A stretch of DNA of 58,982 nt, counting the filler, from Jimgerdemannia flammicorona (lineage: Eukaryota), in assembly GCA_003990765.1 (NCBI GenBank). It is 3 parts of 3 records of this genome, joined end to end, with 100 filler letters (N's around TTAATTAATTAA, not from the genome) between each part and the next. Parts side by side here need not be neighbours in the genome. Positions count along the whole stretch, not along the records: positions 19,707 to 39,294 come from RBNJ01001901.1; 2 more parts are not named here. One strand, given 5' to 3'. Both the position numbers and the translations under genes were made by a program. The notes under the pieces are model-generated. The model was not told the origin of the DNA, did not search any database, and was given only the letters and a program-made list of their open reading frames with translations. Shown one piece after another: positions 10,544-49,700 of the stretch (its first letter is position 1; the number at the start of each line of letters is the position of its first letter).

Positions 10544-10546
10544 ACT

Positions 10547-20444: not shown

Positions 20445-21105
20445 ACAAAGTTGCTAATTATTGATGAGAATATTATAGTTTGTTATATATATTAATTATG
20501 ATTATATTTATTAAAATAGTTGTTCTTCTAAACTTGATAAGAATATTTTAGATCTTTCTTAGAAATATAGCTCTTATACTATCTGCTTAATAAATACCAA
20601 CTTCATAGATTCTTAAATTTCTCAGTTTAGATAGTTTACTATCTTTTTACTAAGAAGATATTCTTTAGCTCTTATGTATATCAATAATGACCTTAAAGAC
20701 CCTATCTTTAATTTGATAAGTAATATAAATAAAGATCTTATAATTATCTTTATTCTATTCACTGAAGTCTTCTTAAGTATTATTGATCTCTACTATCTTT
20801 CAGTATTAATTCTTAATGGCTTCAGATAGTTTCAATCTCATCTACTGTCTGAATATAAGAATTTCTACTAACTGTCCAAAGGTTATATAGATCTTTTATT
20901 AGCTAAGGTTCTTGAAGATGTCATACTTGAAGATTCTGCTCTTGTATAACTTCTTCTTCTTTGCTCTCTCACTGATATCTTTGACTACTTACTTGAGCTC
21001 TATATTTATCTTCATCAATCTGATTTTACTTTCAATGACTACTTCTGATTGTCTGTTTACAGGTTCCTCAGTTGGAGTCTTCTTAGGCCTTCCTGATGAT
21101 CTCTT
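20445..21105 (-). mobile_element. Heavily mutated Gypsy-1-family gag C-terminus/protease fragment
   Basis: Minus strand GRPKKTP..KLYKSRIFKYDIFKNL..TFGQLVEILIFRQ..FKVIID matches 11660-12310. Confidence 0.75.
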
Positions 21106-21106
21106 G

Positions 21107-21365
21107 TCAGATTATTATATCTTAGATAACTACTATTATATTTCAGACAACCACTGTATTTCAGATGACTGCTGCATTCTAGATAACTACTATATTCCAT
21201 ATAACTGCTATATTTCAGACAACCACTGCATTCCAGACAACTACTGCATTCCAGACAACCACTGCATTTCAGACAACCATCACATTCCAGATGACTGCTG
21301 CATTCCAGATGACTGCTATATTCTAGATGACTGCATTCCAGATGACCACCGTATTCTAGACTGTA
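21107..21365. repeat. 18-bp minisatellite (~14 copies, consensus ccagacaaccactgcatt)
   Basis: Direct inspection; produces the PDNHCI repeats in ORF 20912-21619. Confidence 0.9.
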
Positions 21366-22242
21366 TTGCCACTAGAAGCTACATTGTAATTCTCGGTTTG
21401 GTTAATGGTCATTCCCGATCGAGTGCGATGACTCAAACCCGGCGGTCTTCGACGGCCATAGATTGCGGCTTTCAGGAAAGTCTCTATGGGCGATTGACCC
21501 CCGAACTGTTGCGGCTACAAGCTATTGCCAGATCTTTTTTTTTAATTACAATTCATCTCGCATGGTTGATGGTTTGGCCTGAGAGACAGTTGCAGCGATG
21601 CGGAGAAAAACTCGATTGATTGCATGTTGATTAGAAATCGGACATGTATATACTTGTACGTTCAAAATTAATATATAGCTACGTGTGACGGAGTCCTGGC
21701 TATTCTTGGACCTGACAGATTTCTCTAGGAAAAGTCAATTCGGGTTAGTATATACAAATTCGTGGCCGCAGAGAAAGTCGCGGAACATTTCTGGGAACTG
21801 TCTAGCTATCGGCACTTGTTCAGTTCTGAGTAGATGAAGAATTTCTGTTTATTCGTAGTAACCATTACAAGCATATTGGCCGTTACATATCTAAATAAAG
21901 AATGTGGAATGTATGTGCGTATATACCTCAACAGAAGGGGAAAAGAATAGCCCGTACGCCCGAAAATTGACTCCGTCGTTCCTCTGTATACCCGTGATAA
22001 AATATTTCACTAGCTTCGATCATTCACAGTATTAAAAGGGAACGTTTATATTTTCTCTGATACAATCGGCATCTAATCTGACACAACCAGCTTGCTTGCA
22101 CGGTACTACCATGTTGCTTACATTTCAGATCTAGTTATACAATTCATTTGCTTGGGTATATTCGCACAGCAGCCATTCAGCGAAACTATTTATGTGGTTG
22201 ATAGGAAGATTTTCATGGCTTTCTGAATGCTAAAGTTGAACC

Positions 22243-22284
<42 letters not shown>

Positions 22285-22859: not shown

Positions 22860-25800
22860 TTTTCAATTGACGAGGCCTTCAACAACGACTTCAGCAAGTC
22901 AGCCAAAGAACCTGACAATATTCTCGCTGACACATGGCGAGTCATATCTACCTGACCTGTTGCAATCGTTCTCAACGCTCTCGAACGACACAATGATAAT
23001 ACTGACGTTTACAACCACACAGCTATCATCCTTTCCATTCCAAGATGCCCTCTGGAGAAAATTCCACGAGGCTGAGCGACGACAACTCGCAAAGCCGCTG
23101 GATGGTTCCCTACCCTTATCTGCATACAGGATCATGATACCAAACACCAAAAATACCGCCTCAGCCCCAAAACCCCCAGCCAAGGCTGATACCCCTCTGG
23201 CATTGACCGCGGGCCAGGGAAATGTTTTTGGGGCGATGGCAGATTCCCCTAGTTCTGACACACCCAACAAGGATCACAAACCCCAAGAGGAAGGAAAACC
23301 AAGGTCCACGAAATGTTTCACATGTACAAACAATATGTCTAAAACATAAAATAAAGCATGACATTGTCTTCACAACCAACTCCTCACGGTCCGTCACAAG
23401 CTTGCAAAGCCTGGGACAGACTTCGGACTTGTATGGTTTGAACTAATCGGTGTTGTTAGGTCGGTCGGCAGTTTGTGGTGGCTGTGAATACGATAATGCC
23501 GTGCTGTAGATAATGGATAATTGTATTTGTACTTGGTAGCATAGCAATTTGTTGGGAATGATATCACGACATGAAAAGCGCCTGAATTTGGCACCAGGGT
23601 GCGGTTTGCATGGAGTTAGTAAACATATTCGTGAAGATAAGGAGTGCGGCAATTATATCACTATCACTATTGTAAATGAGATGGTTGAAGTTCAGTTTAC
23701 ATAAAGGTCGTTTGACTCGCACGTCAAACGAATGGCTGTATGAATCGGCCGTAATATTGATTGATTTAAATTGCTTTGAACTTCGGATGCCAATACTCCT
23801 TATTTTCCACAAATTTGTCAGAGCATACACGTGTGACGTTGAGTAGTAAAGTTGTTTCAGCCGCAATCAGACTAGCGCGGCAAAAGGAATAGCCTCTACG
23901 CAGGGTTCATTTCTCGTGGAACATCTGGTCTGTTTTCCTCAGCAGGTCATTAATTTTTGCCGTTATTTGATCGACCTGTTCTTCCCCCAAATACAATCCC
24001 TTACGTCCTTTTCAGTGTTAAGGGTACTGTACATAGGATACGTGTGACTCCCACCAGCAAAAGATTGCATATGACCTTTTCGCTTCTTACCCGAATATTT
24101 CAGGCTAGTTAGTAATCGATCTCATTGAATGTGATGAGCCGTGCTACTCCGGCGATCGGTACGAAACCACCTGGTGTAAATTTAATGTAAGATCGACGAA
24201 ACCAAATACAGGTCACAGGTACTGCACGTTTCCACCATTCGAGAAATACTGTTATGACAGGAGTGACGAACGGAAGCCACAAAGAGCCACATGCCGTAAA
24301 TTAATATTTCCCGAATAAGCTCGCTTTGGTTTTCTGAGGGAAGCGTGTTGAGGGGTCTTCGGTCGAGCTCTCGAATGTTTTTTCCGCCAAGTTTCGTCTC
24401 TGCTGAGGTCGTTTTATTTACCATGCATTTCACTTGAGTTTGCTTCTCCAGTTATCGGATTCGATGTACATTCATCACTCTTCCGAAGCAAAACCTTTTC
24501 ACCATGAAGACGATAGACTTTGACAGAAAAGGAACCAAATGGACTCGAGGAAGGTCTGGGTCACCTGGCTCCGACGGGTGGAACGGTAAACCCGAATGAA
24601 ATTGTGACCGCTCTTTTTGCTAATTAAATATGTGGGATACTGGAATGCGATAGTATAGTATCTCCTTAATAGGTTTATGACATATATTGCATTAATGTCA
24701 ATCCGGTAATTCAGGTCATAAATGTACAAGCCCTAAGTCTAAAGTTATTCCAGAGAGTTGCCAGCGTTACACTTTCAAAGTATATAAACCAGCTCTTGCC
24801 TTCACTCTTCCCATCGTTCCTGATCCTGATGGCTCGGCTTATCTTTCTCTGGGCAATCGCGCTCGCCTTGGTTTCCATTGTCAATGCAATTACCCTAACC
24901 AGACTTTTCGAAATCCAATCTAATTCCAAGTAAGTCATCCACTTATTACCTCACCGGGATACGTCAACATACCACACTAGACATTAAAAAATGCGATTTT
25001 AATCAACTTCTTAGGAATAAGCTCTTCGCTCCGAACAAAATAGCCGTATCGTCAGCGCTTGGTCCGTTTAAATTTCCGCAAAAGGTTGATCATTTCGACA
25101 GTAACAACAATGCTACTTTCCCTCAACGCTACTGGGTCAACTCAACCAACTATCGCCCAGGCGGTCCGATCATCTTCTTTAGCGTTGGCGAGGCGGATGC
25201 GTCTCGTTATTCGGGCTATCTTATTAGAGGTGAAACGTCGTTGCTGGCGCAAAAACTCGGAGGTGTGGTCATCGTATATGAACATCGGTATTACGGCGAA
25301 AGCAATCCAGTCTCGGTACGTCGAGGTTTACACTTTTGATATTTTCAACCTCTTGCGGTATGGTGATTATTAAATGTGATGTTTCAAACCAACTTTAGGA
25401 TTTGTCGAGCAAAAATATGGTCTACCTCACCGTCGACCAATCATTGGCTGATATGGTCAACTTCATGCAAACCGTCGAGGTATGAATATAATTACTCGTA
25501 GCTGGCGACACAAACTCCTCTTCCTTTAGTAACTCAACCGGCTGTACTTCCAGATCAAAATCAACGGTAGAGCTCTTCCTCCGGCCCCCAAAACACCCTG
25601 GATCCCCATCGGTGCTTCGTACCCGGGTGCCCTTACTGCGTGGATAAAATACAAACACCCGGAGCTTGTTTTTGCCTCTATCTCCTCGTCCGGTCCCATC
25701 CAGGCCAAATACGACCTCTGGGAATATTTTGAGCCTATCCGGATGGGTGCGTCTGCACACTGCCGCGATTCCATTATCAACACTGTTAAATATGTAGATA

Positions 25801-26763
25801 AGATCTTGTTTGGCCACAACAAAAAGAGGATTCAACAGTTGAAAGCACAGTTTGGACTGGCTAATGTCACCCACAATGACGATTTTGCCGTAGGTAAGGA
25901 ACATGAAAGTCCACAGCCTGTTTACTATTGATAGAATGGTCAATAATCCTTAACCGTTCACAAAAACTACATAATGTCCCACAGCCCTCGTCATTCCCCT
26001 CTGGTTCTGGCAAAGCATCTATCCCGGCAACTCCAACCCCTTTGAAGAATTTTGCCAAGTCTTCAACAATGCCACAACACAGAGTGCTCAAGTTGCAGCC
26101 TACGCATCTTGGTACGCCGCGTACGCCGCCGCCACCTGCAAGGATAATACCATACAAGATGATTGCTTCGGCTCCTACGACCCAAAAGCTTCATTCTACA
26201 CAAAAACTGCTCTCAACAACGCTGGCAGATCGTGGACTTGGCAGACTTGCCTCGAGTTCGGATACTGGCATTCCGCTGCGCCCAAGGGCCATCCGACGCT
26301 TGTCTCCAGACTTGTCACAGCGGAATATTGGCAAAGACAATGCCCATTGTATTTCCCAGATTCCATTCTGCCGAAGAAACCGCGCACGAACTACTTCAAC
26401 AAGAATTTTGGGGGATGGAAACTCGAGGCGGACCATATCTTCTGGATTAATGGCGAGTTCGATCCTTGGAGGTCATTGAGCGTTGCCGCCCCCAATGCAC
26501 CTAAGAGACTGAGCACGGAAAAAAGCCCTAATGTTGTGATCAAGGTAATGTGTGTGAGAATGTAGATAGTGCTTTTTGAAGCTATCCAACAATCGGTCAC
26601 TGACATGCAAATACATGAACTTAAATTCATATAGGGCGCCGTGCATGGTTGGGACAACTTATGGTCACCTACAACAGTCATCCCCGAACCCATTGTCGAG
26701 GTGCATAATCAGCTTATCGCAAGTTTGAGCGGATGGCTCAAAAATTTTAATGCTACGAAATAG
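22860..26763. repeat. Segmental duplication copy A
   Basis: Collinear with 30940-33969 from 'tgacga(g/t)gccttcaacaacgacttcagcaagtcagccaaag' through the S28 gene; ~0.8 kb (23710-24495) is absent in copy B. Confidence 0.9.
24829..26763 (+). CDS. Secreted serine carboxypeptidase, family S28 (prolylcarboxypeptidase/DPP7-like), paralog A, ~503 aa
   Basis: Exons 24829-24929, 25015-25315, 25399-25479, 25554-25893, 25985-26544, 26635-26763 (GT-AG, phases consistent). Signal peptide, QKVDHF, FPQRYW, EHRYYGES, GASYPG, WQTCLEFGY, NGEFDPW, GAVHGWD. TATATAAA at ~24781. Confidence 0.93.
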
Positions 26764-28218: not shown

Positions 28219-28249
<31 letters not shown>

Positions 28250-28957
28250 GCGATTCCGACATTTTCCAGGGCTAAGAATTTTGATCGCTATGCGATAAGG
28301 GTACGGATTGCTACAATACATAGTGCATCTTTCGGCAACGCATAAACTGTTTAACAATATTATGATACTCGCTTAAAGGAGCTAACTTGAAAAAATAAGT
28401 TTCGTCAATCGGAAGGTTTGTAGCTAGTGATGGGTAATACCCGCAGAGGCAATGCACGAGGCCGGATACATGATCACAGAGTCCCTTTGCTCCACCTCGC
28501 TCTGTCTTCCTCCTTTCCTGCCACCAGCAATGCCTCTCGCGATACGTCGGGTGCAAACACTGTCAAACAAAGAAACGGCCTCCTGTTAGGTTGTAACAGA
28601 TAAAATTGTTGTTGATCCTGTTTGAGTTCTCACTTCGATGGGAACCGACAACGGAAAAATTCGGGCGTCCGGTTTGTGGGTCTGATCTCGATGATAATAG
28701 CTATGTTAATGCCTATGTCATTCACGCGCAGTTATTGCCCTCAGTCCTCAAATTGGTTCTTCGAGTCGCTCTTATTAGCCACGCGCATTTTCGTCCAGGT
28801 CGTGAGATAACACCTGAGCCAATGCGATCACCTAGAGACCATTTGTAAAGTAAAAACAACATACTCTCACCATTGAGACACCAGCTCCTCCATTTCTGGG
28901 ACGCTTATTATCAAGATACGTATATACTGGAAAGCGCACGATCTCGATCCAGAATGG

Positions 28958-29002
<45 letters not shown>

Positions 29003-30939: not shown

Positions 30940-33900
30940 TTTCAATATTGACGATGCCTTCAACAACGACTTCAGCAAGTCAGCCAAAGGAACAGACAAG
31001 ATTCTCGCTGACACATGACGAGTCATCTACCTGACCTGTTACAATCGTTCTCAATGCTCTCGAACCACACAATGATAATACTGACATAATGCCGTTTACA
31101 ACCACAGAGCTATCATCCTTCCATGGTGGAAAAATTCGACGAGGCTTAGCGAATCCGCATCCAAACTCAATTTTACGATGATACTAAACACCCTCAGCCC
31201 CAAAACCCCAAGCCATGATCGGCACCTCCTTGGCATTGGGGAAATGATTTTGGGGCGGCGACGGTTGCCCCCAGTTCCGACACACACCCAACAATTCGAA
31301 CCGGAGTGTCCAAGCGCTGAGTCGGATGTACACGAAATGTTTCAAACATATTAATTTTACATGTACAAACAATATGTCTAAAACATAAAATAAACCATGT
31401 CATTGCCTTTACGACGGCAGAAACTAACTCCTCACGGTCCGTAAAGCCTGGGATATACTGCGGTCGCTGCTGCGCCCATTTGGGCTTGTACGGTTTGAAC
31501 CAATCGGTGTTGTTAGGTCGATGTGGTGGCTGTGAACACTGATATCATAGCCAGAAAAGCGTCATATGCTGACATGAACACCAGGGCGCGGTTTGCATGG
31601 AGGGGGTAAACATATACGTCTCTTTGAAAGCGCTTGAAATAAGATAAGGAGTGCGACAATTATATTACCATTACTATTGTAAATGAGCCGATTGAAATTC
31701 AGTTTACATAAAAGTATTTCACCATGAAGGCGAGAGACTTTTGACAGAACAGAAAACAAATGACTTATTCCGGGAACGAGAAGAAGGTTTGGGTCACCTG
31801 TTGAAATCTATTGCTCCGCCACTTAGAATTGTAGACCCGACGGTTTTGTTTACGTATTGTACAGTATATATCTACTCAATAGGTTTATGACATACATTGC
31901 AACCGGTAATTCAGGTAACAGATACACAAGCCCAATGTCTAAAGTTAGTTCCAGAGAGTTGCCAGCGTTACACTTTCAAAGTATATAAGAGAACCCTTGC
32001 CTCCACTCTTCCCATTGTTCCTCATCGTTCCTGAAAAACATGGCTCGGCTTATTTTCTTCTGGGCAATCGCGCTCGCCTTGATTTCCATTGTCAATGCAA
32101 CTACCCTAACCAGACTTTTTAAAAACCAATTTAATTCCAAGTAAGTCATCCACTTATTACCTCATCGGGATAAGTCGACATACCACATCAGACATTAAAA
32201 AATGAGATTTTATATCAACTTCTCAGGCGTAATCTCTTCGCTCTGAACAAACGAGCCCTATCACCACAGCTTGGTCCATTTACATTCCCGCAAAAGGTTG
32301 ATCATTTCGACTGGAACAACCATGCTACTTTCCCTCAGCGCTACTGGGTCAACTCAACCAACTATCGCCCAGGCGGTCCGATCATCTTCTTTAACGTTGG
32401 TGAGTCGGATGCGTCTGGTTTTACGGACTATCTCATTGAAGGTGAAACGTCGTTGCTGGCGCAAAGACTCGGGGGTGTGGTCATCGTATTTGAACATCGG
32501 TATTACGGCGAAAGCAACCCAGTCTCGGTATATACGTCGAAGTTCGCACTTTATGATATTTTTCAGCTTCCTTTTTTGGTTTGGCGATTATTAAATATAA
32601 TGCTTCAAACCAACTTTAGGATTTGTCAAGCAAAAATATGGTCTACCTCACCGTCGACCAATCCTTAGCTGATATGGTCAACTTCATGCAAACCGTCGAG
32701 GTATGGAATTGCCACCGAATAAAATTACCTGTAGCTGGCGACACCCTTTAGTAACTCAAACGGATGTACTTCCAGATCAAAATCAACGGTACAGCTCTTC
32801 CTCCGGCCCCTAAAACACCCTGGATCCCCATCGGTGGCTCGTATCCGGGTGCCCTTGTTGCGTGGTTAAAATACAAACATCCGGAGCTTGTTTTTGCCTC
32901 CGTCTCCTCGTCCGGTCCCGTCCAGGCGAAATACAACTTCTGGGAATATTTCGAGCCTATCCTGATGGGTGCGGATGAACACTGCCGCGATTCCATTATC
33001 AACACCATTAAATATGTGGATGAGATCTTGTTTGGTCATAACAAAAAGAATATTCAACAGTTGAAAATACAGTTTGGACTGCCTAACGTCACCCACAATG
33101 ACGATTTTGCCGCAGGTTAGGAACATGAAAGTCCACAGCCTGTTTACTACTGATAAAATGGACAATAATCTTTAACATATATACATAATGTCCCACAGCA
33201 CTTGGTATTCCTGTCTCGTTCTGGCAAAAAACCGAACCCGGCGATCCCGGCCCCTTCGAAGAATTTTGCCAAGCCTTCAACAACGCCACAACACCGAGTG
33301 CTCAAGTTGCAGCCTACGCATCTTGGACCACCGCATACGCCGCCAACGCCTGCCAGAACCAAACACAAGATGACTACTTCGGTACCCACGACCCGAAAGC
33401 TTCAAAATGCACAAACACTACTCTCAACAATGCTGACAGATCGTGGCTTTGGCAGACTTGCCTCGAGTTCGGATACTGGCAAACCGCTGCGCCCAAGGGC
33501 CATCTGACGCTCATCTCCAGGCTAGTCACACCGGATTATTTTCAAAGACAGTGCCAATTGTTTTTCCCAGTTTCCATTCTGTCTAGTAAACCGCGCACGA
33601 ACTACATCAACGAAAAGTTTGGGGGATGGAAACTCGAGGCGGACCATATCTTCTGGATTAATGGCGAATTCGATCCTTGGAGGTCATTGAGCGTTGCCGC
33701 TCCCAATGCACCTACAAGACTGAGCACGGAAAAAAGCCCTAATGTTTTGATCAAGGTAATGTATATGAATGTGGATAAGTGCAATTTGAAATTATCCAAT
33801 AATCGGTCACTGACATGCAATAAATGGACTTCAATTCATATAGGACGCCGTCCATGTTTGGGACGCCTTTTGGTCACCTACAACAACCATCCCCGAACCC

Positions 33901-33969
33901 ATCGTCGAGGTGCACAATCAACTTGTCGCAAGTTTGAGCGGATGGCTCAAAAATTTCAATACTATATAG
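30940..33969. repeat. Segmental duplication copy B
   Basis: Collinear with 22860-26763. Confidence 0.9.
32040..33969 (+). CDS. Secreted serine carboxypeptidase, family S28, paralog B, ~501 aa
   Basis: Exons 32040-32140, 32227-32527, 32620-32700, 32776-33115, 33199-33755, 33844-33969; GGSYPG, NGEFDPW, DAVHVWD; same intron positions as paralog A. Confidence 0.93.
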
Positions 33970-33971
33970 GA

Positions 33972-34092
33972 TTTTTTTTTTTTTTTTTTTGGAAATTACA
34001 ATTTCCCATTCTAGCCTTGTGCACTATCTCAGTTTCCAAGCCCCGCCTTCACCTCCGGAAACAACTTACCCAATTCCATTTTTACACCCTCA
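33972..34092 (-). mobile_element. Short poly(A)-tailed retroposed insert in the S28-B 3' UTR
   Basis: T-run directly after the stop codon; absent from paralog A, whose gttgatatg flank resumes at ~34097. Confidence 0.4.
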
Positions 34093-34474
34093 AGTAGTTG
34101 ATATGTGTTATCCTCTCAGAGAGATTGTCTGTAGTGAAAAATAGACAAAGAATTAATACAAATGAATAATAGGCAATCTAAATTAAAATAGAAAAATAAG
34201 AATATCAGTATCATAAATAATTTAAAGAGAGAGATAGATAATATAAATTATCTGAAGGGTTTGTAAAGTTTGCTGATGGCGTATTTACACGGGATTTGCA
34301 TGATGACATAATCTGGGCGAAACTGAATTATACTACCCATCCTCCCTATTACCCCCACGCACTCATCCATCCATTCTTTCGCCCCGTGTACCACTCTAGG
34401 CACCTTGCGGTTCGTTGAGGCTAGAGACTTAGGTCTCGTCGGAACTTAATGTGTCTGCACATACCACCTCCCCA

Positions 34475-34498
34475 TATATACCTCTCATACCGTCAGTT
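34475..34498 (+). promoter_or_regulatory. TATA-like and initiator-like motifs upstream of the hammerhead
   Basis: TATATA 34475-34480 and TCAGTT 34493-34498. Confidence 0.35.
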
Positions 34499-34510
34499 GC
34501 TAACTAACCC

Positions 34511-34568
34511 CGGTTTGGGTAGCCTTCCGAAGCCCACTGATGAGGCCCCTTGGCAGGGGCCGAAACCG
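34511..34568 (+). ncRNA. Type III hammerhead ribozyme
   Basis: Stem III CGGU/ACCG; cleavage triplet GUU (34513-34515); stem I UGGGU/GCCCA; core CUGAUGA 34537-34543; stem II GGCCCCU/AGGGGCC with loop UGGC; GAAA 34562-34565. Confidence 0.88.
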
Positions 34569-34984
34569 AAGGAATTGATTCTCCCTAATTTCTAACTTGC
34601 ATTCGCACCTCCCCACCACCAATGGAGTATAGTAACATCAAAGTCAAGAAAACAGATGTGACTACGATTGGCCTCAATATACACTGACACCACCAAACAA
34701 ATCCTTGTCGACGATTTTTTTTTTTTTTTTTATTATTTTTTTTTTTTGCCAGGGGCGTTGCCGGCATGGATGACATGCTCATCCGTGCTGGCAAAGTAGA
34801 TCAGGGAGCCGAGCGTTTCTGGGCAGCATGGTGAAGAGAGAGACAAGGGTCGTGTCCAAATGGTAGAAGCCAAATTTCACCAGTTTAAATCCTGCTGCCT
34901 ACATCATTTGGGCAATTAAATAATTCTCGCAAATGTTGTACCATATAATCGTAAATAAATTATTTAACAAGGACCAACTTGTTC

Positions 34985-35303
34985 ACTGGGGTGGATGGAC
35001 AGCTGGTTTTCTTGGACCAGGAGAAGGCCTATGACAGAGTCTGGCATGTGTGTGGTTGGAAGGGGTGCTGGGGTCCCCCCTGGGGTCCAGCGGGCCTTGA
35101 TAGGTCTGCTGAAAGGGAGTTGGGCAGCAATCATGGTAAATGGGCACAGGGGGGTTTTGTTCCCTCTGGGCAGTGGAGTGCCACAGGGGATCCACTGTCA
35201 CCAATCCTGTATGTATTGTCCCTGGAGCCTTTTTTGGATAGGATATGGTGAAAGGTGGGAGGGTTGGATATTTTAGAAGTTAATTAGAAGGTGAGAGCCT
35301 TCA
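34985..35303 (+). mobile_element. L1/Tx1-clade LINE reverse transcriptase fragment (oldest layer)
   Basis: LVFLDQEKAYDRV, IMVNG, GVPQGDPLSPILYVLSLEPF across frameshifts. Confidence 0.88.
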
Positions 35304-37027
35304 CACCTTTCACTGGTAACATTCAGGTGACACAAGACTCAGGCAATACTTTTTACAACATTTTTGATAATAGATGACTATTGACATAGATAGCAATGAT
35401 CACACTGGTAAGTGTGCTGGCCAGGGGGGCAGTGGTGCCTTTGGCTGGCAGCAAGTGGGGAGGAGGGGTGATGGTTTGGGGATGCCAGGGGCTGCTATGG
35501 CTGGACAAGGTACTGGTGGTAGAGGGAGGGGCAGCCTGAGGCAATGAGGAGGGGAGAGGTCAATCTTTGCTGATAAGGTCAAGATGGGGAGAATGGCCTC
35601 TGGTCTGGATGATTGACTGGGCCTGGAGAAGATATCAATGACTACTGCTAGGGGACAGGAAGGGGTGCCCAAGGGAGTGTCTGGCAGCAGGAGAGGGGGG
35701 GGAGTAGGGGCTGGAGATGTGACTGTTGATGGGGCTGTGACTGGGGATTTGGAAAAAAATCCAGATATGATAGTGGTTGATGGTTCAGGACAGGGGGTAG
35801 GCACGAGGCCTGGGGATCTGGCAGATGGGGTGATGGGCATGGTGTTGGCACTATTACTTAAGAAATCAAGGTTGGAATTCACTATCATATTGTGTTTCAG
35901 GGGCTTGGTGGTAACTGTGAGGATGATCTTGGGGCTGGTGGTACAGAAGATGAAGGGGGCAGCCTCAGTGAAGTTTTTGAAGAAGAAAGAAGGGGTTGAG
36001 GTGGGGTTTGAGGAGGAGGAAGCATTGTTGGCTACCATGGAGAAGGAGGTTATGGTGGGAGGAGTAGTGGTCCCTATGGCTCAGTGTATGCACTGAGACC
36101 CCCAGGTGGTACAGTTGACAGTATTGGATCTTCCTATGATGTTGAGGGAGAAGACCAGAGAGTTGATTGTGGGGGTGGTCAAGAAGTATGGGAATATTAT
36201 AGACATCAGGTTTAAGATCTGAGAGGGTATGGAGCTCTGGACTAGTAATGTCGATATTTAGGTGAGGCTGGCTGGAAAAGAGAATACAGGGAAGATGAGA
36301 AATTGGCCAGTGACTCTGAAGTGGGAACTAGTAGAATATAAGATCATATAGGTAAAGGGGATGCAAGAGGAGAAGAAAGATTTACTTGAGGGTCTGGAGG
36401 ATCTGGCAAAGACAGTCAAGAGGAGGTGATTGGCATGGAAGGAGTATGAAGCTAAGACAGTGTTGGAGGTAGTTGATGGAAAGAGGACCAGAATGGACTG
36501 GGTGACCTGGGAGAAGATATAAGAGAGGAGAATCCAGAAGGAGCTGCTGGAGAAGTTGGGTGGTGGTGGGGCCAGTAGCAGTACAGGGACTGAGAGAGTG
36601 GGATTGCATAAGAGTGCCTAGGCAGAGGAAAGTGGGATGGCCCAAGGAGGGACTCAGGATGAATCAAGGGAGGAGAGACAGGGCAGTGTTGAGGTAGATA
36701 TGGAAATGAGTGGTGGAGTACACCCTCAGTATAGTGTCCTGGATGGGGCAGTGGGTGAGGAGGAATTACTAGATATACCAAATGAGGAGTGGGATGAGTT
36801 GGTGAGAAGGAGTGCTTTGGTGGACCCAGAGGTGGGGGGAGAGCAGGTTGCCCAGGGTATAGCAGAGGCAGTGGATGAGGAGAAGTGGCTGTGGAAGACT
36901 CTGGAAGGGGTGGCAGCTGAGGAGCTGGGGGGAGGGGACTTCCAGGTTATAGAAGAAAGGTACTGGGAGGAAATTCTGTATGGGGAGGAGGTCCCAAGGA
37001 AGGTTAGGAATGAGATCCTGGCAGTAC
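35304..37027 (+). mobile_element. Older LINE copy: 5' UTR and degenerate ORF1
   Basis: 5' end cacctttcactggtaacattcaggtgacacaa matches 37028; GTRPGDLADGVMGMV..AASVKFLKKKEGVEVGFEE matches the intact ORF1; CpG-depleted with stops. Confidence 0.85.
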
Positions 37028-37208
37028 CATCTTTCTCCAGTAACATTCAGGTTACACAACCCTTTGGCAACACTTTCGACACAGTTTCTGGAGAAAAGCT
37101 ACTAGTATCATGGCGACCAATGAGCATCTGGAGGTGCGTACTGGGCAGGGTGGCCCTGGAGCATTTGACTGGCAGTAAGTGGGGAGAGGCCCCAGCTTGG
37201 GGGGAAGT

Positions 37209-39140
37209 ATGAGGGGCCTGCTGGTAGGGGGCCGCAGTGGAAGAGGGGGTGGAGCTGGAGGTCAAGGGTCCGGCAGGGTGAGCTTTGCGGAGAAGGTGAA
37301 GGGGGGTCGACAGGGAGCTGGACTAGAGAGCTGGCTGAGAGGGGGGAAGGTACCGGTGGCGGATTCCAGGCAGCAACCGCTTGGAGGTGCCTCTCTGGAG
37401 GGCCATAGGAGTGGAGCTGGGGGAGTAGCGGCTGGAGTGGGGACTGCTGATGGGAGTGTGACGGGTAATCTGGAAAAAAATCTAGATGGGACTGCTGATG
37501 GTGAGCCAAGCAGTGGGAAGGGCACGAGGCCCAGGGACCTGGCGGATGGTGTAACGGGACTGGTGGTGGCTCCGTTACTCAAGAAGTCGATCTCGGCATT
37601 CGCAGTCACGCTGTGCTTCAGGGGCTTAGCAGTAATGGCAAAAATAGTATTGGGGCTTATCGCTAAGCAGGTGGCAGGAGCGGCTTCGGTGAAGTTTCTG
37701 AAGGGACTGGAGGGGGTGGAGGTGGGATTTGAGGAGGTGGAACCACTGGAGGAGGCGCTGAAGGTTGGGTTGGTGGTTGGGGAGGTGTATGTTCCGATGG
37801 CAAGGTGCTTGAAATGGGATCTGAGGGTGGTCCAACTGCTGGTGAAAGGAGTACCCATGGTGACGGCGATGGAGACAAGGAAGAGAGTAGAGGATGTCAT
37901 GGCGGAGTACGGCGAGATAGTGGATATCGGATTCAGGGTCTGGGAAGGGACCGCACTCAGGACTGGGGATGTGGATGTGAGGATTCGGCTAGCTGGGAAA
38001 GAGGCTACTGGGAAGACGAGGGACTGGCCTTCGGTGTTGGTCTGGGGGGCCTTTCTATGCAAGGTGATGCGGGTGAAAGGGAGTGAAGAAGAGGAGGAAG
38101 ATTTATTGGAAGCGCTGGAGGAGCTGGATGGGGCTGTGGAATGGCGAGCTAAGGCCTGGAAGACTTTTGAGGAGTTGATGCTTCTGGAGGTGGTGGATGG
38201 AAAGAGGATTCGAGTAGACAAGGTGCAGTGGGAAAGGGCTCAAGGGTGGAAGAGGCAGAAGGATTTGCTGGCCAAGCTGGGGGGTGGTCATCAGAAGGAT
38301 GCGAGCATGAAGACGGGTACAGAAGGGGCCGGAGCGAGTGTCTGGGCTGGTGAGAGGAGTGGGAATGAAGGGGCAGGGTCCGGAAAGGCTAAGGAGGTGG
38401 AGATTAGAGACCTATATGCTGACGGCACCTTGGAGATTTGGGACGCCAGCTGGGAGAACTCCCCCATCCCTTCCCCTCTAATCAGGCGTGGCCCGGCTTC
38501 CAGGAACAAGCCTGGGGAGGACGTGACGATGCTGGGAACCCAGCAGGTGAAATTCAGTGTTCTGGAGGTGTTGGATGGGGACCAAGTGGGGGCAGCAGGG
38601 GAGGAGGAACTGGTAGATGTCCCGGAGGTGTGGGATGAGGACGCGAGTGCGGGAGCGGACACCACGATGCTGGATGGAGGGAGGCCGGCAACCCTGGGTG
38701 GTAAGGAGGTGGGGAACCTACTTTGGATGTACTGGATGATGAATAACCTAGCGGCGGATGAGCTGGGGGAGGTGGACTTGCGTGGGATGGGTGATGAGCA
38801 CTGGATGAGAATTTTGCAGGGGGAAGGAGTGGCGATGGTGCTGAAGGCAGAAATTCTCGCGGTGTACCTGGCGGAGGAAGGGTATGAGGTGGATAAGGAG
38901 AGGGAGGCAGAGTTGGCAGTGGTCGCGGGGGAGAAGGCTGAATACTGTTGGAACAGGCATCATGGGTTGCAACTTTGGCAGGAGGCTTGCATCGAGTACC
39001 GTGAGGAGTTTGAGGAGAAGGCTGATGAGGAGATGAATGAGCTGTTGACTGGACTGGAGGCTCAGAGGGCCGAAGAGGAGGAGGTGATGGCTGAACATAA
39101 TCTGGACACAGTACGGGAGGAGAGGGGCATGGAGCAGTAG
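37209..39140 (+). CDS. LINE ORF1 protein (RRM-like core, acidic C-terminus)
   Basis: Open frame 37179-39140 with first ATG at 37209; SFAEKVK, VQLLVKGVP..YGEIVDIGF..RTGDVDVRIRL resemble L1/Tx1 ORF1; lies upstream of ORF2. Confidence 0.8.
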   Translation: MRGLLVGGRSGRGGGAGGQGSGRVSFAEKVKGGRQGAGLESWLRGGKVPVADSRQQPLGGASLEGHRSGAGGVAAGVGTADGSVTGNLEKNLDGTADGEPSSGKGTRPRDLADGVTGLVVAPLLKKSISAFAVTLCFRGLAVMAKIVLGLIAKQVAGAASVKFLKGLEGVEVGFEEVEPLEEALKVGLVVGEVYVPMARCLKWDLRVVQLLVKGVPMVTAMETRKRVEDVMAEYGEIVDIGFRVWEGTALRTGDVDVRIRLAGKEATGKTRDWPSVLVWGAFLCKVMRVKGSEEEEEDLLEALEELDGAVEWRAKAWKTFEELMLLEVVDGKRIRVDKVQWERAQGWKRQKDLLAKLGGGHQKDASMKTGTEGAGASVWAGERSGNEGAGSGKAKEVEIRDLYADGTLEIWDASWENSPIPSPLIRRGPASRNKPGEDVTMLGTQQVKFSVLEVLDGDQVGAAGEEELVDVPEVWDEDASAGADTTMLDGGRPATLGGKEVGNLLWMYWMMNNLAADELGEVDLRGMGDEHWMRILQGEGVAMVLKAEILAVYLAEEGYEVDKEREAELAVVAGEKAEYCWNRHHGLQLWQEACIEYREEFEEKADEEMNELLTGLEAQRAEEEEVMAEHNLDTVREERGMEQ

Positions 39141-39170
39141 GGATTGATCGAGAACAAACCGTATTTCATT

Positions 39171-39294
39171 ATGAACAGTATAACCAACATTTTTTCTTTG
39201 AACGTGAATGGGCTTAGGGGCGCAGCTAGACGCAGGAACATTTTTCTTTGGTTGAAGGGATTGGAGGCCGATCTCTTCCTCTTGCAGGATGTCA
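39171..39294 (+). CDS. LINE ORF2 N-terminus (APE-like endonuclease), partial
   Basis: IFSLNVNGLRGAARRRNIFLWLKGLEADLFLLQDV (EEP motifs NVNGL and D..LQ[E/D]). Confidence 0.88.
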
Positions 39295-39394
39295 NNNNNN
39301 NNNNNNNNNNNNNNNNNNNNNNNNNNNNNNNNNNNNNNTTAATTAATTAANNNNNNNNNNNNNNNNNNNNNNNNNNNNNNNNNNNNNNNNNNNN
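39295..39394. other. Assembly gap/linker
   Basis: N44-TTAATTAATTAA-N44. Confidence 0.97.
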
Positions 39395-42819: not shown

Positions 42820-44257
42820 TATTAGATTTTAAAATATAATATATTTTAATTTTTTTTTTCTACTTTTAAATAAAGTTTATTTACTTATTATAGTCTAAAA
42901 TGCAAATCTATCTTAGACTTAATTTGATATATTTATAAGATATATGACATATTTATATAATACTAAAATTAAGATAATTATAAGTTTATCTAATTAATAT
43001 TTTCAAAATTTTAGGTTAGTTATTTATAAATAAATTTATAGTTTAAAAATTAATTTTAAATTATATAATATATAAATATTTTATTAAATATACAATTTAA
43101 AATTATATTAATAATATATTGTAAAACTGTTAAATTTAAAAGCAAAAAGTATATTATTTATTTATTTGAATAAGAGATTACATTAATTATATATTTATAT
43201 ATTAAGTTAGAATAAAGAAAATTTTAATACTTTTATATATTTTGAACTATTTTAATCTAAGATTTATTCACTCTAAATACTGAATTATTTATATCAGTTT
43301 ATTAGCTATATAGTAGCTAAGTTATAACTTTTTTTCTTATAAGTTACTTTATAACTATAGAATTTTATAATTATAAGTTTTCTTATAAGTATAAGATTTC
43401 TAACAATTGTAAAATTCTTATATCTATAAGATTAAATAACTATTAACTATAATACTATACTAATTTAAGAATTGAATTCAGATATTATGATCAAATATCT
43501 ATTTTTTTAATTTATTTTTAATTTAGATTATATATTATACTAGATTAAAGTAAAATCTAAAAATACTGAACTTACTCTACTAAGATTCTATACTATGTCT
43601 TTTTAGAATAACTACTAAAAATATCTCATAAATATTATAAAGATCTTTAAAGAATTAATTACTATTAAAATAACTAAAAAGCTATCTAAGTAATATATAC
43701 TATCTAGTTAGCTATTATCATATTATATAATATATGTAGCAACTACTTCAAAAAGTCTTTGATACTCTCTTAGTATTAAAGAAAGAGACTTGAGATAATA
43801 TTTTTAAAATTATTTATAAAAGAAGAGAAGATATTAAGAATTTATTAGTCTTTAGTTTATTTTTAAGTTACTTAAAATTAAAAGATATATATTATTAAAG
43901 ATAATTAATCAAGATACTACTCTCTTACTACTTGGCTAATACTTTTATTCTTTAAGAAATAGCTAGACAAAGTTATAGATTTTAGTATTTTATCTACTCT
44001 CTTTATTATATTAACTAAGAATTATAATATATCTTTATTAATATTAAGAAATATTTCAAACTTATATTTAGTTAACTAATAGCTTTATTCTTATTACTTA
44101 TTAGCTATAATAAATCTTACTTGATATATATGGTTTAGTTTTAATAGTATTACTTATTATATATATATAAGTATAATAGTTTAATTATATTTAACTTAGT
44201 ATAATTTTATAATTATTTGAATTTTATACTTATTTAAATATATAGCTTATATATATA
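42820..44257. repeat. Extremely AT-rich decayed repeat sequence (class unidentifiable)
   Basis: Abrupt loss of C/G and CpG, TpA-rich, no ORFs. Confidence 0.55.
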
Positions 44258-44640
44258 TAATGCTCCCAAATGAGTCGAATCGAATTAGGGATTTTTCAAT
44301 TCGAATCAATTCAAATCAAATCAAAAGTCAAATTGAATTGAGGGTCTGATTTGAACCCTAATCTTCAAAATGTAATAACTCAGCATAAACTCATCTAAAT
44401 CTAATGTACTTTAGCTTGTTAGAATCACATTAATATAGTGAATCTAACAAGTTAAAATACGTTAAATTTGGATAAGTTTTTGTCAAGTTATTATATTTTG
44501 AAAATTAAGGTTTGAATCAAACTTCGAATCAAATTGGACCTTTGATTTGATTCAAATCGAATCAAATTGGACCCTTGATTCGATCAAATCGAATCAAGTT
44601 TGGGCCAAATTTAATTTGATTTGATTCATTGGGAGCATTA
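44258..44640. mobile_element. Foldback MITE (possibly hAT-derived) in a (TA)n site
   Basis: TIRs taatgctcccaaatgagtcgaatcgaatt / aatttgatttgattcattgggagcatta; long internal inverted repeat centred ~44433; TA runs on both sides. Confidence 0.85.
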
Positions 44641-44734
44641 TATATATATATATATATTTATAGTCACTCAGACTCTCTGATATTTATTATCAAAACTCTT
44701 CTAATCCATAATATAATATAATAATCTTATCCCT

Positions 44735-45383
44735 AACCAATCTCTCTTAAGAGATCACTCTCCTACTAGTAGTGTGATTAGTTATAGTAGTACTTGATAG
44801 TTTCTCTTTTCTTAGTACTTCTGGCAGATATTATATTTTTTGAGTATATCTCAGACTTATGTTCTGAGATGGAGTTAGTATTGAAATATCATTCATAACT
44901 TTTCTTTTATGTTTACTTATCCTTAGTGGGCTTTTTGATATTCTTTTCAGATAAGGTCTTCTTATATTTTAGCAGTTATAAGAACTTTCTTTAGAGTATA
45001 GTTCCTTACTTCTGGTTTATTAAGTTTGATAAGAAAGTATATCAATATTATTGTAAGCTTTCTCTACTTTGTAATAATAGTAATTTTATAATTTTGTAGA
45101 ATAAGGATCTAGTAGATAAGAATTTAAATAGGTTTCTTATAGTTGAATAGCTATTTGAGAATAATATGGTCAATTATCAGAGTGAATTTTTTTCTGATAA
45201 GTTAGTATTTGAACCGAATAACTATCTATATAACTGTAAGATATTTCAGTTTAATACTGCTATAATTGATTTACTACTAATTAGTAGTTTAACTTATATA
45301 AGCTATTACATAGTACTACTGATTAGATTCTTCTTGAGCTAGAACTACTCTAAGACTATCTTTAGAGATATCTATGTACATAT
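44735..45383 (-). mobile_element. Older Gypsy-2-family element (host), RNase H/integrase part
   Basis: Reverse complement aligns with 52260-52910. Confidence 0.8.
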
Positions 45384-46676
45384 TGTGACAAGTAACAGAA
45401 TTATACTACTGAAATTATAAATTAGCCATATACTATATCTAGTATACTAAGCAACCAAGACTGCTTTACTGTACCAACCTGTATATTTAGTCAGAGATAC
45501 CAGAAACAGTATATTTACCTGTACTCATCAGATATACTATATCCTCAAGGTACACTGTACCCTCAAGGTACACTGTACTCTTAAGGTATACTATACCCTT
45601 AAGATACATTATACTCTTAAGGAACACTTACTATAGTTAGCAATCTATAGTTAGCAATGTAATAATCAGTAGTAACTACAACTATATAAAATACCTCAGA
45701 GATAAGAGTGAATAAATCTCAGTCCAAAATACAAATACCAAAGAAGCTTCTAAAGATTGAGCATTGGTCCTCTTTCTACTCTAGTCTACTTTCTAATATA
45801 AAGATTGATTGGTTTGTTTGCTAGATAAGTCTAAAGTTTGCTGCCAAATTCAAGAAAGAACTTTGCTACTTTTTAAAGAGAAATCTGCTACTTAAGGAAT
45901 AAGCCACTATGTTTTTGTTTACTTACCAGATAAGCCTGAAGAATCTGAGTTATCTGTATTCCTAAAGAATCTGTTATTCTTACCACAAGCCAGTCTTCTG
46001 ATATAACTTTACAGTAATTTATTGGTATAAATGAAGTCAGTCTTTGACATAACTTGCTAAGAATCTACTGTCAGTTATTATTTTTAGAAGAACTCTACTG
46101 ATTTAGAAAGAATCCATAACCTCCAAGTTATCTAAGTTATCTAAGTTATCTATATCATCTGAGTTATTAGTTTGTTCCCAGTAAGTCTGATACAGAAGAA
46201 TCTGCACCACTCTCTATTCCCAGTAAGTCACTGAGCATAATTTCCAGTAGGCTAATTAGGAGAATCTGTGTCAAATTGAGTCATCTGTCAAATTACCAGA
46301 ATATTATACATAAGAAATCTACTGTACTATATAGAAATTATCATACAGAAATCATATAAGAAAACTGCCAAATTTTCAGACCATTATATATAAGGAACCT
46401 GCTACACTATACAGAGATTGTTATACTATATAAGATTATTATATAGAAATCACATACTTTTAGAGAATGCTTGAATCACATATAAATTGCCACTATACCC
46501 AAGAATCCATCCCAATAAGGAAATCACCAGAATTGCTTACAGATATCCAGCTTTGACTATTATACCACTAAACATCAAGAATATTTTGTTACTTTTAACA
46601 AAGTAACTAGAGCTCAAGCCAAACTATATCAAACTCTCAACTTTGTAATTGTCTCTATTGAGTCAGGTATATTACA
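45384..46676 (+). repeat. Gypsy-2 5' LTR
   Basis: TGTGAC..TTACA; aligns to 54250-55508; TATATAAAA ~45684, AATAAA ~45711; 18-bp tandem unit about x5 versus about x3 in the 3' LTR. Confidence 0.93.
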
Positions 46677-46678
46677 TT

Positions 46679-46695
46679 TGGAGGCTCAACTGAGA
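46679..46695 (+). promoter_or_regulatory. Primer-binding site of Gypsy-2, tRNA-Gln-like
   Basis: TGGAGGCTCAACTGAGA resembles the complement of eukaryotic tRNA-Gln 3' ends (TGGAGG....ACCGAG). Confidence 0.6.
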
Positions 46696-46749
46696 AGATT
46701 TCAAAATTAATATGACTTTTTAGCTCACAAGAACTTATAGCCAAACTGG

Positions 46750-49700
46750 ATATATTTGATACAATACCAATCTCTGCCACTATAGAAGAACTAGTTATTA
46801 CCAGCATTTAGACAGAAAGAGAAGTAATCACTTTAAGACTTATCAATTACCCAGCATCAAAAGGATCTCAACCAAAAGTTAGTATAGTTCAAAATCTCTA
46901 ATCAGATCAACCAAACAACATAGGTAGCCCTGTTGGAGATCTTGAAGAACTTGTACAAAAACTAAAAGATCTCATTACACAAGCCCAATATCTTATAGCC
47001 AGATACCCCATACCAGTTCCACCAATCTCATTTATTGAACCTTTACTGCCAGCTCTTGCAAAATTGGAAGTAGCTCTTATAAGAATACCCAGGCTCATTC
47101 CACTTCATCTAAGGTCCAGAATATCATCCTCAAGATATCTAAGTACTCTCATCTCCAGTGATAGTTTAGAAAGCAAATCAGAGTCAGAATCTAAATCAGA
47201 ATCTGGACCAGAATCAGAATTAGAAGAAAGTGTTGATGAAATGGCCACCTCACTGCCAACTTTTGCAGGATATCTAAAGAAAGACCCCAGAGAATTCCTT
47301 GATAGAATTGAAGGAATTACAGCTCTGAGAAATCTCTCAGATGAAAGAAAAATTACCATCTATAAGGCCTAGCTCAGAGAACCAGCCAGAGAAATTTTCC
47401 ACTGAACAGCAAATGACCCACATTCAGAACTGGTGAGACAGATATAAGCAGCAGTATTTTATAAGCTAGAATATGTAGCCATGATTCACTAGCTTATCAA
47501 AAAATATGCAGAAAATGAAACCTGCCATAAGGCTTAAGAATCTATTATAGAGATAAAGAGAATTATCCAGAGCCTTCTTCACAAGAATCTAGAAGAAAAT
47601 ATATACTGCTGGGTTCAATATCATCAACCAAGACATTATAGAACCAATGACCTTTATAAATGGGATTCCTCCAAACATTGCTTAGTATATCCATACCCTA
47701 GACATCAGAAGGTCTAAAGAGCAAGTAGATGCAGTCTAAGAATTCTTTGATATCAGACAAGAAACTACCTAGAGTGATCATAATAAGAAAGAAGATAAAG
47801 AAGACATCCTGGTCAAAGTCCTACAAGGACTCCTCCAAGGACAAAAGAAATCTGAAGAAAGAAGACCAGCCAAAGAAGGAAAGAAGGACAGAAGTGAAAT
47901 CTAAGACCTCAGCTCCAAGTTAGATCAATTGATTGGACAGATTGAAAAACTTACCACACACAAAACTCAGAGTTATCCAGACAATAGAGGGTACTCCCCA
48001 TAAAGAAACCAGGGCCATCTATCCAGAGATAACAGAAGCTATCAGCAAGAAGAAAGAAGATATCCTGTTCAAGACAGAGCTCAAGTCCAATGCTTCCACT
48101 ATAGACAATTCAGATACTATACCACTGAATGTAATAACAAAAGAAGTGACCAAAGGGACTCAGAACCACCAAACTGAAGGAATGACACTCAGTACAAGAA
48201 TACTAAAGCCCATCCTATTGAAGATTTCAAAGAAGCAAGCAATAGTGAAGACTATAGTGACCTAGACTTATACTCTACCAAGATAACTACTCAGAAAACA
48301 GTCTACCTAGCAGAAAAAAGGAAGAGACCTATAGGAAGGCCATCCAGGAATATCAGCAAAAGAATCATCCAAGAAGAAGATAAAGAACATGAGAAAGAGT
48401 AAGTAGAAATACCTCCCTGAACTCTCTCACCTTTTATTCCTAAGACAAATAAGCTATCACCAGAAGATGAAGAAATAGAACAAGAAGAATGGGAACCTGC
48501 TGCCCCAAAACCTAAGAAGAAGTATACCCCAAAGACCATGCCTAGAGATATCTATAATGAAGCCTGGCAGAAGATTCAAGAAGCCAAGATAGAGGTCTCC
48601 CTTCTGCAGTTTCTGCAACTGACACTAGCTGGAGTTTAAAATAAATTGCTAAAAACCACTAGGTCTAGTACTGGCCAGGTCCCCATTCCACAGCAAGAGC
48701 CAGCTTCCATTCCTATCCAAGCTGCAGAAAGATATGTCAGTACTTACCTATATAGAGATATTGGAGAACAAAAGGCAAAAATCCTTATAGACACAGGAGT
48801 AGCTGTTTGTATTATTGCCAAGTAATTCCTGGATACCCTCTAATAGCCCATTGATGGACCATCCAACCTCAGCATTATAGTAGCAGATAGAGCCTGAACT
48901 CAACCCCTTAGAGAAATATGAACATCATTATCTCTCTGGGACACATTCAGTTCTCCATCCCAAAAACTATTGTCACTAAAGTTATTACCTATGATATGAT
49001 CCTTGGCACTAACTGAATGAAGGAAATGAATATAATTGTTGATATCAGTCAACAAGTACTTAGGTTTGACTATCAGGGCAAGAAGTACAGAGTTAAGGTA
49101 ACCAGCTATGAGCAATTGAAGAAGAAGAAGAAGATCACTATCCAGGAAGAATATGCCAGTAGTGAAGAGTCTACTACAGAGGAAAAAGAAGAATCTGAAG
49201 ATGGAAATGATTCCAGACTCAATCCCAGGATCAACCTAGTAAATAACAGACCAGAAGATAATATATAGGCCAAGAACACTGTCCTCATTACCATCAGAGC
49301 CATTGCAGGAGAAATTAAAGGATACTCTACTTACCTCAAGAGACACAAGTGTCCTGAGCACTCCTCCAAGATCATTGGGACAAGAAATTCACCCAGCACA
49401 GCCTGCCCAGAATGCAGAAAGAAGAAAAAGAAATGCAGATATATTCCAGAAATACCTGCAGCTGAAGCTGCAGAAGTACAAGCAATTTAGAGTCAAGAAT
49501 CATCTGAGGAAGAAGAAGTTCCTAACCAAGAAGTTTCTGAACAAGAAGTACTTGAAGAAAAAGAGGTCTCTGAACTCATTTCCTGAGATGACCCTTGCTG
49601 GACACTATCTGAAGACAATGACTCTTGGAATATAGAAGAAGAACCCAGTATAATCCCCATTATTCCTAAGAAAGAAACTCACCAAGAGAGGGAATTTTGG

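Follow-up and report, generated by a model that had tools for sequence, protein, structure and literature searches.

The nuclear genome of Jimgerdemannia flammicorona, an early-diverging and root-associated fungus of the Endogonales (Mucoromycota), contains a type III hammerhead ribozyme motif, which we report here. The motif lies in a stretch of 58,982 nt, called the window in the following, which consists of three parts joined end to end and along whose whole length all positions are counted. With a probability of roughly one half we take the motif to be a solitary copy, probably decaying or weak, from a dispersed family of short repeats that bear a hammerhead and are transcribed, a family which follows the logic of a retrozyme and yet falls outside the definition of one. 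Sister copies of the motif are found in RNA assemblies of the same fungus, an upstream flank is common to the window and a sister copy, and a perfect 10-nt direct repeat brackets the motif in the window (Table 1).

Results and Discussion

The hammerhead motif

Direct reading of the motif confirmed the complete type III hammerhead of the original prediction, with all core nucleotides present and stems I–III able to pair, as it contains every core position, the A15.1-U16.1 and G10.1-C11.1 pairs, an H17 residue and three helices. Helix I consists of U34516-U34520 with G34532-A34536 (5 bp, closing pair U.G), helix II of G34544-U34550 with A34555-C34561 (G34544-C34561 representing G10.1-C11.1) and helix III of C34511-U34514 with A34565-G34568 (ACCG), which gives 4 bp including A15.1-U16.1 (A34565-U34514). 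Helices I and II are closed by loops and helix III is open, which is the helix order of type III. The 11-nt loop I (AGCCUUCCGAA) contains a GCC complementary to the GGC of loop II, and the loop–loop complementarity that had been proposed is thus present in the sequence. H17 is U34515 and not G, resulting in the cleavage triplet GUU and a predicted cut between U34515 and U34516.

Rfam models were compared with the window by cmscan at gathering scores and then in a sensitive scan of the whole window on both strands, using 4227 families and E<=10. In the sensitive scan RF00008 (Hammerhead_3) covered the motif with all 54 model positions, showing an E of 9.5e-06 on 501 bases and of 0.0011 on the whole window. 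It was the best among the 16 matches at this threshold and the sole ribozyme among them. We consider it very probable that the motif is by descent a true hammerhead.

Sister copies in RNA assemblies of the same fungus

Four (X1–X4) of eight listed RNA runs were placed on positions 31800-36200 at 80% likeness. X1 and X2 are RNA assemblies of the same fungus, one from each of two studies, and X3 and X4 are root metatranscriptomes; all four consist of assembled contigs, whose strand and true ends are unreadable. That X1 and X2 are derived from RNA is seen from 5-6 GT..AG joints in the neighbouring Peptidase_S28 gene. The bin 34446-34592 has a depth of 25 in X1 and of 80 in X2, depth being a poor measure of amount in such contigs, and neither run covers 34299-34445 or 34593-34886, holes which prove nothing.

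One contig of X1 and three of X2 match the motif, and they fit the window only from ~34506 or 34531 to 34568/34569 before they continue with unlike sequence. Beyond the match the X1 contig has 13 letters upstream and 141 downstream, and the three X2 contigs have 247 or ~109 letters before it and ~255 behind it. Their loose ends read CCGGUC and then UGGGC AGCC(C/U)U, followed by the matched A GCCCA CUGAUGA, which is again the type III order. Compared to the window, the sister copies carry GUC for the GUU triplet (U17 to C17) and a C-G for the U.G pair on top of helix I, and their loop I is four letters shorter with AGCC retained, while the same 4-bp helix III is kept; within the visible fragments there is no double-sided compensatory change. 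As far as can be judged from the contig letters, every visible difference is one that a hammerhead tolerates.

The similarity of the flanks was scored by alignment against 2000 shuffles and 2000 random places of the window. One X2 contig aligns to 34481-34504 (24 nt) with a score of 26, which is reached by 3 of the 2000 shuffles and at 1 of the 2000 random places, and the stretch 34497-34525 gives a score of 30 with the sister copy, reached by none of 2000 shuffles. We conclude that sister copies of the window motif are expressed in this fungus, with the caveat that no more than 13-30 letters of each flank are visible, and because these copies stand in RNA contigs it would belong to a multi-copy family. 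It is the few visible flank letters on which the family claim rests, because a match of core and helix II can also arise by convergence.

The contigs also bear on the promoter that had been proposed upstream of the ribozyme. TATATA (34475-34480), TCAGTT (34493-34498) and the ATG at 34622 are found where they had been claimed, the frame of the ATG having 21 codons only. The TATA/Inr reading itself is weakened, as the only sister copy with visible upstream sequence has ACAACC for TATATACC, with another 247 nt of its contig lying upstream; the TATA box is hence no feature of the family, and the hammerhead in that copy is internal to a longer RNA. An intron reading of the same region (CTAAC at 34500-34508 with TAG at 34520-34522, and TACTAAC...CAG in a sister copy) was rejected because the sole upstream GT (GTCAGT, 34492) would result in an intron of 31 nt and because a third copy has no branch-point motif.

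A candidate inserted unit of 131 nt

The direct repeat CACCTCCCCA encloses 131 nt, and the hammerhead is located centrally in this candidate unit, 33 nt from the left end and 34 nt from the right. A comparable bracket occurs at 158 of 8384 sampled window positions (1.9%) and at 18 of 3938 (0.46%) where the GC content is >0.42. The bracket suggests an insertion with target-site duplication, and 10 bp is a typical length of such duplications in the integration of long interspersed nuclear elements (LINEs). The ratio of observed to expected CpG is 0.74 in the unit (6 CpG), 1.0 in the Peptidase_S28 gene, 0.33 in the LINE-like stretch downstream and 0.03-0.05 in the long terminal repeat (LTR) elements of the window. 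CpG is thus retained in the unit as it is in unique DNA, and the value agrees with the young or low-copy element that had been deduced originally, small as the numbers are.

The larger unit of the original prediction (34100-34710) could not be upheld, since 34100-34257 is the 3' end of the Peptidase_S28 gene, to which RNA contigs extend (34172-34257). Apart from the poly-T run, 34258-34712 is not repeated in the window. Within the 59-kb window neither a second hammerhead nor an LTR-like direct repeat nor a ribozyme on the opposite strand was detected (Rfam at E<=10, repeat comparison). A complete retrozyme and a viroid-like integrant with ribozymes of both polarities are therefore excluded at this locus, for which a retroelement, a retrozyme-like unit or an integrated viroid-like RNA had been suggested originally. 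With its 10-nt terminal repeat the unit might be taken for 1.07 turns (a 1.07-mer) of a circle of 141 nt, but back-joints are absent from the RNA contigs. Further readings of the region were dropped: candidates for a solo LTR (TG...CA) are flanked by 4-bp matches only, which is chance level; an element on the minus strand ending in the poly-T run has only 7-8-mers as candidates for a target-site duplication; and for a miniature inverted-repeat transposable element no terminal inverted repeat was seen by eye.

Proposed mechanism

In the mechanism that we propose, a transcript of the + strand would fold into helices I–III about its CUGAUGA/GAA core, and self-cleavage between U34515 and U34516 would leave a 2',3'-cyclic phosphate on the upstream product and a 5'-OH on an RNA that retains nearly the whole ribozyme. 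By this cut the element RNA would be trimmed from longer host transcripts, as happens with retrozymes and other repeat-borne hammerheads, and the family may be, or may once have been, a small non-autonomous element that spreads. The copy in the window would then be a 131-nt insertion with a 10-bp duplication resembling a target-site duplication beside a pile of LINE fragments, and because of this arrangement LINE-type reverse transcription appears to be the likeliest mobiliser.

A bolder extension, which we consider doubtful, is that Endogonales carry an undescribed class of mobile units of ~130 nt, composed of a type III hammerhead and a conserved upstream anti-core segment, which are copied by LINEs and abundantly transcribed. 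If true, these units would correspond, in miniature and in fungi, to the retrozymes of plants, and might serve on the chromosomes as a reservoir or graveyard of viroid-like RNAs.

Strength of the window copy and points against a repeat family

Several observations weigh against the assignment to a repeat family, and part of them concern the ribozyme itself. No Rfam match was found at gathering score, as RF00008 reached 34.5 of the 48.5 bits required, and the Infernal check with Hammerhead_3 that had been called for thus gave a full-length and significant match that nevertheless stays below the threshold. None of four other full-consensus hammerheads from metagenomes reaches the gathering score either, which shows the threshold to be strict for hammerheads. 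For the isolated RNA of 71 nt the structure of minimum energy is not the hammerhead (z -1.31, with 20 of 200 shuffles folding equally well). The hammerhead fold has -22.9 kcal/mol (-24.9 with extra pairs) vs -26.5 for a rod-like alternative, in which helix I and loop I pair with the 3' strand of helix II, and in the predicted ensembles of six sequence contexts the mean probability of the helix I pairs is 0.04-0.18. In addition, GUU is a weaker cleavage triplet than GUC. With this triplet, a helix III of 4 bp and a catalytic fold that is not predicted to be the dominant one, the window copy looks weak.

The remaining points concern the family and the unit. Marine type II hammerheads are 95% identical to the window over 34530-34567 (38 nt, core and helix II), and the downstream flanks of the sister copies show no significant similarity, their scores being reached by 1495 and 209 of 2000 shuffles. 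In the sister-copy contigs neither a tandem nor a circular arrangement is seen and no back-joints are listed, and since the contigs are unstranded the + strand is only the presumable transcribed strand of the hammerhead. Just one hammerhead copy is present within the 59 kb of the window. The bracketing repeat was found post hoc and in a C-rich tract, and neither poly-A nor an inverted terminal repeat nor an empty site supports an insertion of the 131-nt unit.

The upstream flank offers a possible regulatory element. CGUCAGU (34491-34497) is a 7-nt complement of the core segment ACUGAUG (34536-34542), a complementarity reached by 82 of 5000 shuffles, and the predicted probability of the resulting anti-core helix is 0.05-0.9, depending on the ends chosen. 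CGUCAGU may act as a cleavage attenuator, which would hold the ribozyme inactive in long transcripts. The sister copy has an A.C mismatch in this complement (CGTCAAT in the alignment), and for that reason the attenuator remains a lead.

Alternative explanations

The same segment is central to an explanation without any mobility, namely a family of host ribozymes in non-coding RNAs or untranslated regions (UTRs), in which the hammerhead is a regulated processing site with its core masked by CGUCAGU until the RNA refolds. Such a family would fit with sister copies whose contigs measure at least ~400 nt and surround them with unlike sequence, with the upstream flank conserved in a sister copy and with the anti-core complement, for which some contexts predict up to 0.9. 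We still consider it unlikely, as the complement is broken by the mismatch in the sister copy, its prediction varies over the whole range given above with the choice of ends, and no RNA cover is seen on the own flanks of the window copy, even if such holes prove nothing. The hammerhead might also be the processing ribozyme of the neighbouring LINE family, which by cutting at its own 5' edge would release the element RNA from transcripts that read through, in the manner known from R2 and other non-LTR elements. LINE-like pieces on the same strand follow 180 nt downstream, the type III geometry places the cut at the 5' edge of the ribozyme, and ribozyme-processed 5' ends of LINEs have a precedent (cited in PMC13725137 and PMC3088659). 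This role appears quite improbable to us, however, because the ORF1-like 5' parts (~35304 and ~37028) are not preceded by a hammerhead, the only one in the window at E<=10 being followed by poly-T and an internal reverse transcriptase fragment and not by ORF1, and because 34258-34712 shows no similarity to the LINE copies.

Hardly likely, too, is that the motif arose by chance or convergence and has no function, in which case the RNA matches would stem from unrelated hammerheads in the same samples. An RF00008 score under the gathering score, the near-identical core and helix II of unrelated aquatic type II hammerheads and the fact that the hammerhead is not the minimum-energy fold would be expected from it. 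Against it stand the E of 0.0011 obtained with 4227 families on the whole window, the helix order of type III and the outside flank that the RNA copies share with the window (3 of 2000 shuffles, 1 of 2000 random places) and the strictness of a threshold that 0 of 4 full-consensus metagenome hammerheads pass. Finally, the locus could be an integrated fragment of a viroid-like RNA, an ambivirus or another ribozyme-bearing replicon, with the RNA contigs representing the replicon itself. Infectious circular RNAs usually carry hammerheads of type III (PMC13725137), and the depth of the RNA copies is of the same order as that of the neighbouring mRNA, though depth is a poor measure. But no ribozyme of a class in Rfam is present on the opposite strand or nearby, the contigs show neither back-joints nor circular permutation, and the loop I variant occurs in 0 viral contigs, a looser pattern giving 4 phage-size contigs with unrelated flanks. 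Moreover, in one screen ambiviruses were far commoner in Basidiomycota than in Mucoromycota (PMC10237039). We regard this origin as very improbable indeed, and continue with the dispersed repeat family as the preferred reading.

Comparison with known hammerhead-bearing elements

Retrozymes were described by Cervera et al. 2016 as non-autonomous LTR retroelements with type III hammerheads (via PMC10886601 and PMC9695139). The proposed family resembles those of plants in having a DNA-encoded type III hammerhead on a non-coding, multi-copy and transcribed unit that encodes no protein. Plant retrozymes, however, carry two hammerheads in LTR-like repeats of ~350 bp, a core of 600-1000 nt, a primer-binding site and a polypurine tract and form circular RNAs, whereas we find one hammerhead, no LTR-like repeat and a candidate unit of 131 nt, and this in a fungal host. 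Hammerheads on interspersed repeats have been reported from Schistosoma, Dolichopoda, Xenopus, Aedes, Nematostella and the fungus Yarrowia lipolytica (Perreault et al. 2011, PMC3088659). They share with the proposed family that they are borne on multi-copy repeats, Yarrowia lipolytica being a fungal precedent. Those families are mostly of type I, in contrast to the type III found here in a fungus of the Mucoromycota.

The hammerheads of Penelope-like elements (Cervera and de la Pena 2014; via PMC13159263 and PMC13725137) likewise lie in retroelement flanks and near retroelement debris, but they are minimal type I ribozymes in terminal repeats next to a Penelope-type reverse transcriptase, and here the type is III. 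Neither a Penelope reverse transcriptase nor a GIY-YIG nuclease was found in the read-through translations of 34753-39294. With the type III hammerheads of viroids, satellite RNAs, ambiviruses, mitoviruses and obelisks (RF00008; PMC13725137) the window copy has in common the core, the helix order, a short helix III and a competing non-catalytic fold. Those systems are RNA replicons, usually with a ribozyme per polarity, while the present copy stands alone on a chromosome, with host genes on its flanks. The hepatitis delta virus (HDV)-like ribozymes of R2 and other non-LTR elements (PMC3088659, PMC13725137) are similar as cutters at a 5' edge beside LINE sequence, and differ in that they belong to another ribozyme class and in that the LINE-like copies of the window do not begin with the motif.

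In the account of Lopez-Galiano et al. 2026 (PMC13725137), infectious circular RNAs have hammerheads of type III, those encoded in eukaryotic DNA are usually of type I, mostly in animals, and mycovirus UTR ribozymes can drive translation; by citation, type III is also linked to plant retrozymes. Rfam hammerhead matches have been filtered from transcript sets of Agaricomycetes (PMC8893723), so that hammerhead matches do exist in fungal genomes, even if they are left undescribed in that paper. Among the papers listed in a literature search and judged on titles and abstracts, no genomic hammerhead family in Mucoromycota and no fungal retrozyme was described, and a repeat-associated genomic hammerhead of this lineage and topology is, at the level of these titles and abstracts, not reported in the literature searched. 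If the reading is true, a transcribed type III family in Endogonales would extend repeat-borne type III hammerheads to the fungi. With the locus and its sister RNAs one could then ask whether the DNA of fungi itself gives rise to RNAs that are circular or processed by ribozymes, and whether such elements are related to fungal viroid-like RNAs and ambiviruses. Should the motif be no more than a solo copy in decay, it would be an ordinary relic.

A scan of metagenomes with a degenerate core pattern resulted in 68 loci, most of which are, by their printed flanks, type II hammerheads of aquatic bacteria and phages; five (L037, L053, L042, L046 and L008) look like type III. None of the loci was accepted as a relative of the element, as BLAST of 34100-34760 gave matches only within 34512-34570. 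The marine type II hammerheads with 95% identity in core and helix II are three of these loci (L020, L023 and L039), and they are a warning that convergence can account for short hammerhead matches between samples. A scan of prokaryote genomes gave a single unrelated match in a metagenome-assembled genome of Niastella. As a side observation, L037 (1270-1302, minus strand) and L053 (3001-3033, minus strand) are metagenome contigs of 4-5 kb with a full-consensus type III hammerhead and homologous flanks. No long open reading frame (ORF), repeat or Rfam match at gathering score was found in these two contigs, which may represent eukaryotic genomic hammerhead loci of another organism.

Genomic neighbourhood

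The original prediction had placed the ribozyme at the edge of a LINE cluster. This holds weakly and for the downstream side only, where LINE-like fragments are barely recognisable; the neighbours upstream are protease genes.

Table 1: Features of the window around the hammerhead motif and the evidence on which each is based.
Feature	Position	Strand	Basis
Type III hammerhead ribozyme motif	34508-34571	+	Rfam RF00008, 34.5 bits, model 1-54; direct reading
Catalytic core CUGAUGA (C3-A9)	34537-34543	+	Direct reading and Rfam alignment
Second core strand GAA (G12 A13 A14)	34562-34564	+	Direct reading and Rfam alignment
Helix I UGGGU/GCCCA with 11-nt loop I	34516-34536	+	Direct reading, folding
Helix II, 7 bp, loop UGGC	34544-34561	+	Direct reading, Rfam, folding
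Upstream flank common to RNA sister copy, CCTYTC(A)TACCGTCARTTGYTWAC, contains CGUCAGU	34481-34507	+	Alignment
Left copy of perfect 10-nt direct repeat CACCTCCCCA	34465-34474		Repeat search
Right copy of perfect 10-nt direct repeat CACCTCCCCA	34606-34615		Repeat search
Candidate inserted unit, 131 nt, bracketed by the 10-nt repeat	34475-34605	+	Deduced from the bracket
Tandem Peptidase_S28 gene, first	~24748-26755		Pfam, repeats
Peptidase_S28 gene, second; expressed, spliced	31949-34257	+	Pfam (to 34097), repeats, spliced RNA contigs
Poly-T run, one of several long homopolymers of the window	34715-34752		Repeat comparison
Purine-rich LINE-like fragments	34753-39294	+	Read-through translations, repeats, Pfam below cut-off

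The two Peptidase_S28 genes form a tandem pair with an offset of ~7.2 kb and blocks that are 83-93% identical (Pfam E 1e-18 to 1e-21). The second gene is spliced in X1 and X2 with the GT..AG joints 32140/32227, 32526/32619, 32698/32774, 33112/33196 and 33753/33842, and its contigs end between 34172, where adapter letters come next, and 34257. An exon of this gene is 99% identical to a protein of Jimgerdemannia flammicorona, the next relatives being from the same species and from Endogone, and a comparison with a protein atlas confirmed the family, though not the taxon. The root metatranscriptomes X3 and X4 cover the Peptidase_S28 gene only, with contigs that are 95-99% alike.

The LINE-like fragments start ~180 nt downstream of the motif on the same strand. 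They include a reverse transcriptase piece at ~34940-35320 (RVT_1, E 0.033, 14.3 bits vs a Pfam cut-off of 29.6) and an endonuclease-like start at 39141-39294 that abuts an N run (Exo_endo_phos, E 0.15, 12.2 bits vs a cut-off of 24.5); in read-through translations of 34753-39294 no Pfam match at E<=0.001 was obtained. Two ORF1-like copies, 35304-36027 and 37028-37748, are 67% identical, and an ORF of 653 aa at 37179-39140 gave a best protein atlas score of 0.87, below the lead level of 0.9. RNA contigs over the LINE-like stretch carry many variant letters. Just behind the poly-T run a near-perfect 16-bp hairpin is located at 34757-34794, for which Rfam gave spurious microRNA-like matches only.

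Unusually long homopolymers of A or T with 30-70 nt are found at many intergenic junctions of the window (19815-19885, 22253-22281, 28221-28249, 28957-28998, 34715-34752 and 58957-58982). Several of the long T runs directly precede GC, and retroposon tails or microsatellites are candidates for their origin. LTR retroelements with zinc knuckle, dUTPase, reverse transcriptase and RNase H are present at 9012-17758 and 44000-58900, and their extreme CpG depletion (0.03-0.05 vs 1.0) suggests a methylation-driven decay of repeats or one resembling repeat-induced point mutation. The N runs at the filler joints (19607-19706 and 39295-39394) each consist of two 44-nt runs split by 12 bases, the second joint coinciding exactly with the beginning of a LINE endonuclease-like frame. 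An 18-nt tandem repeat with ~10 or more copies occupies 21111-21352 within an open frame of 238 aa (20903-21619).

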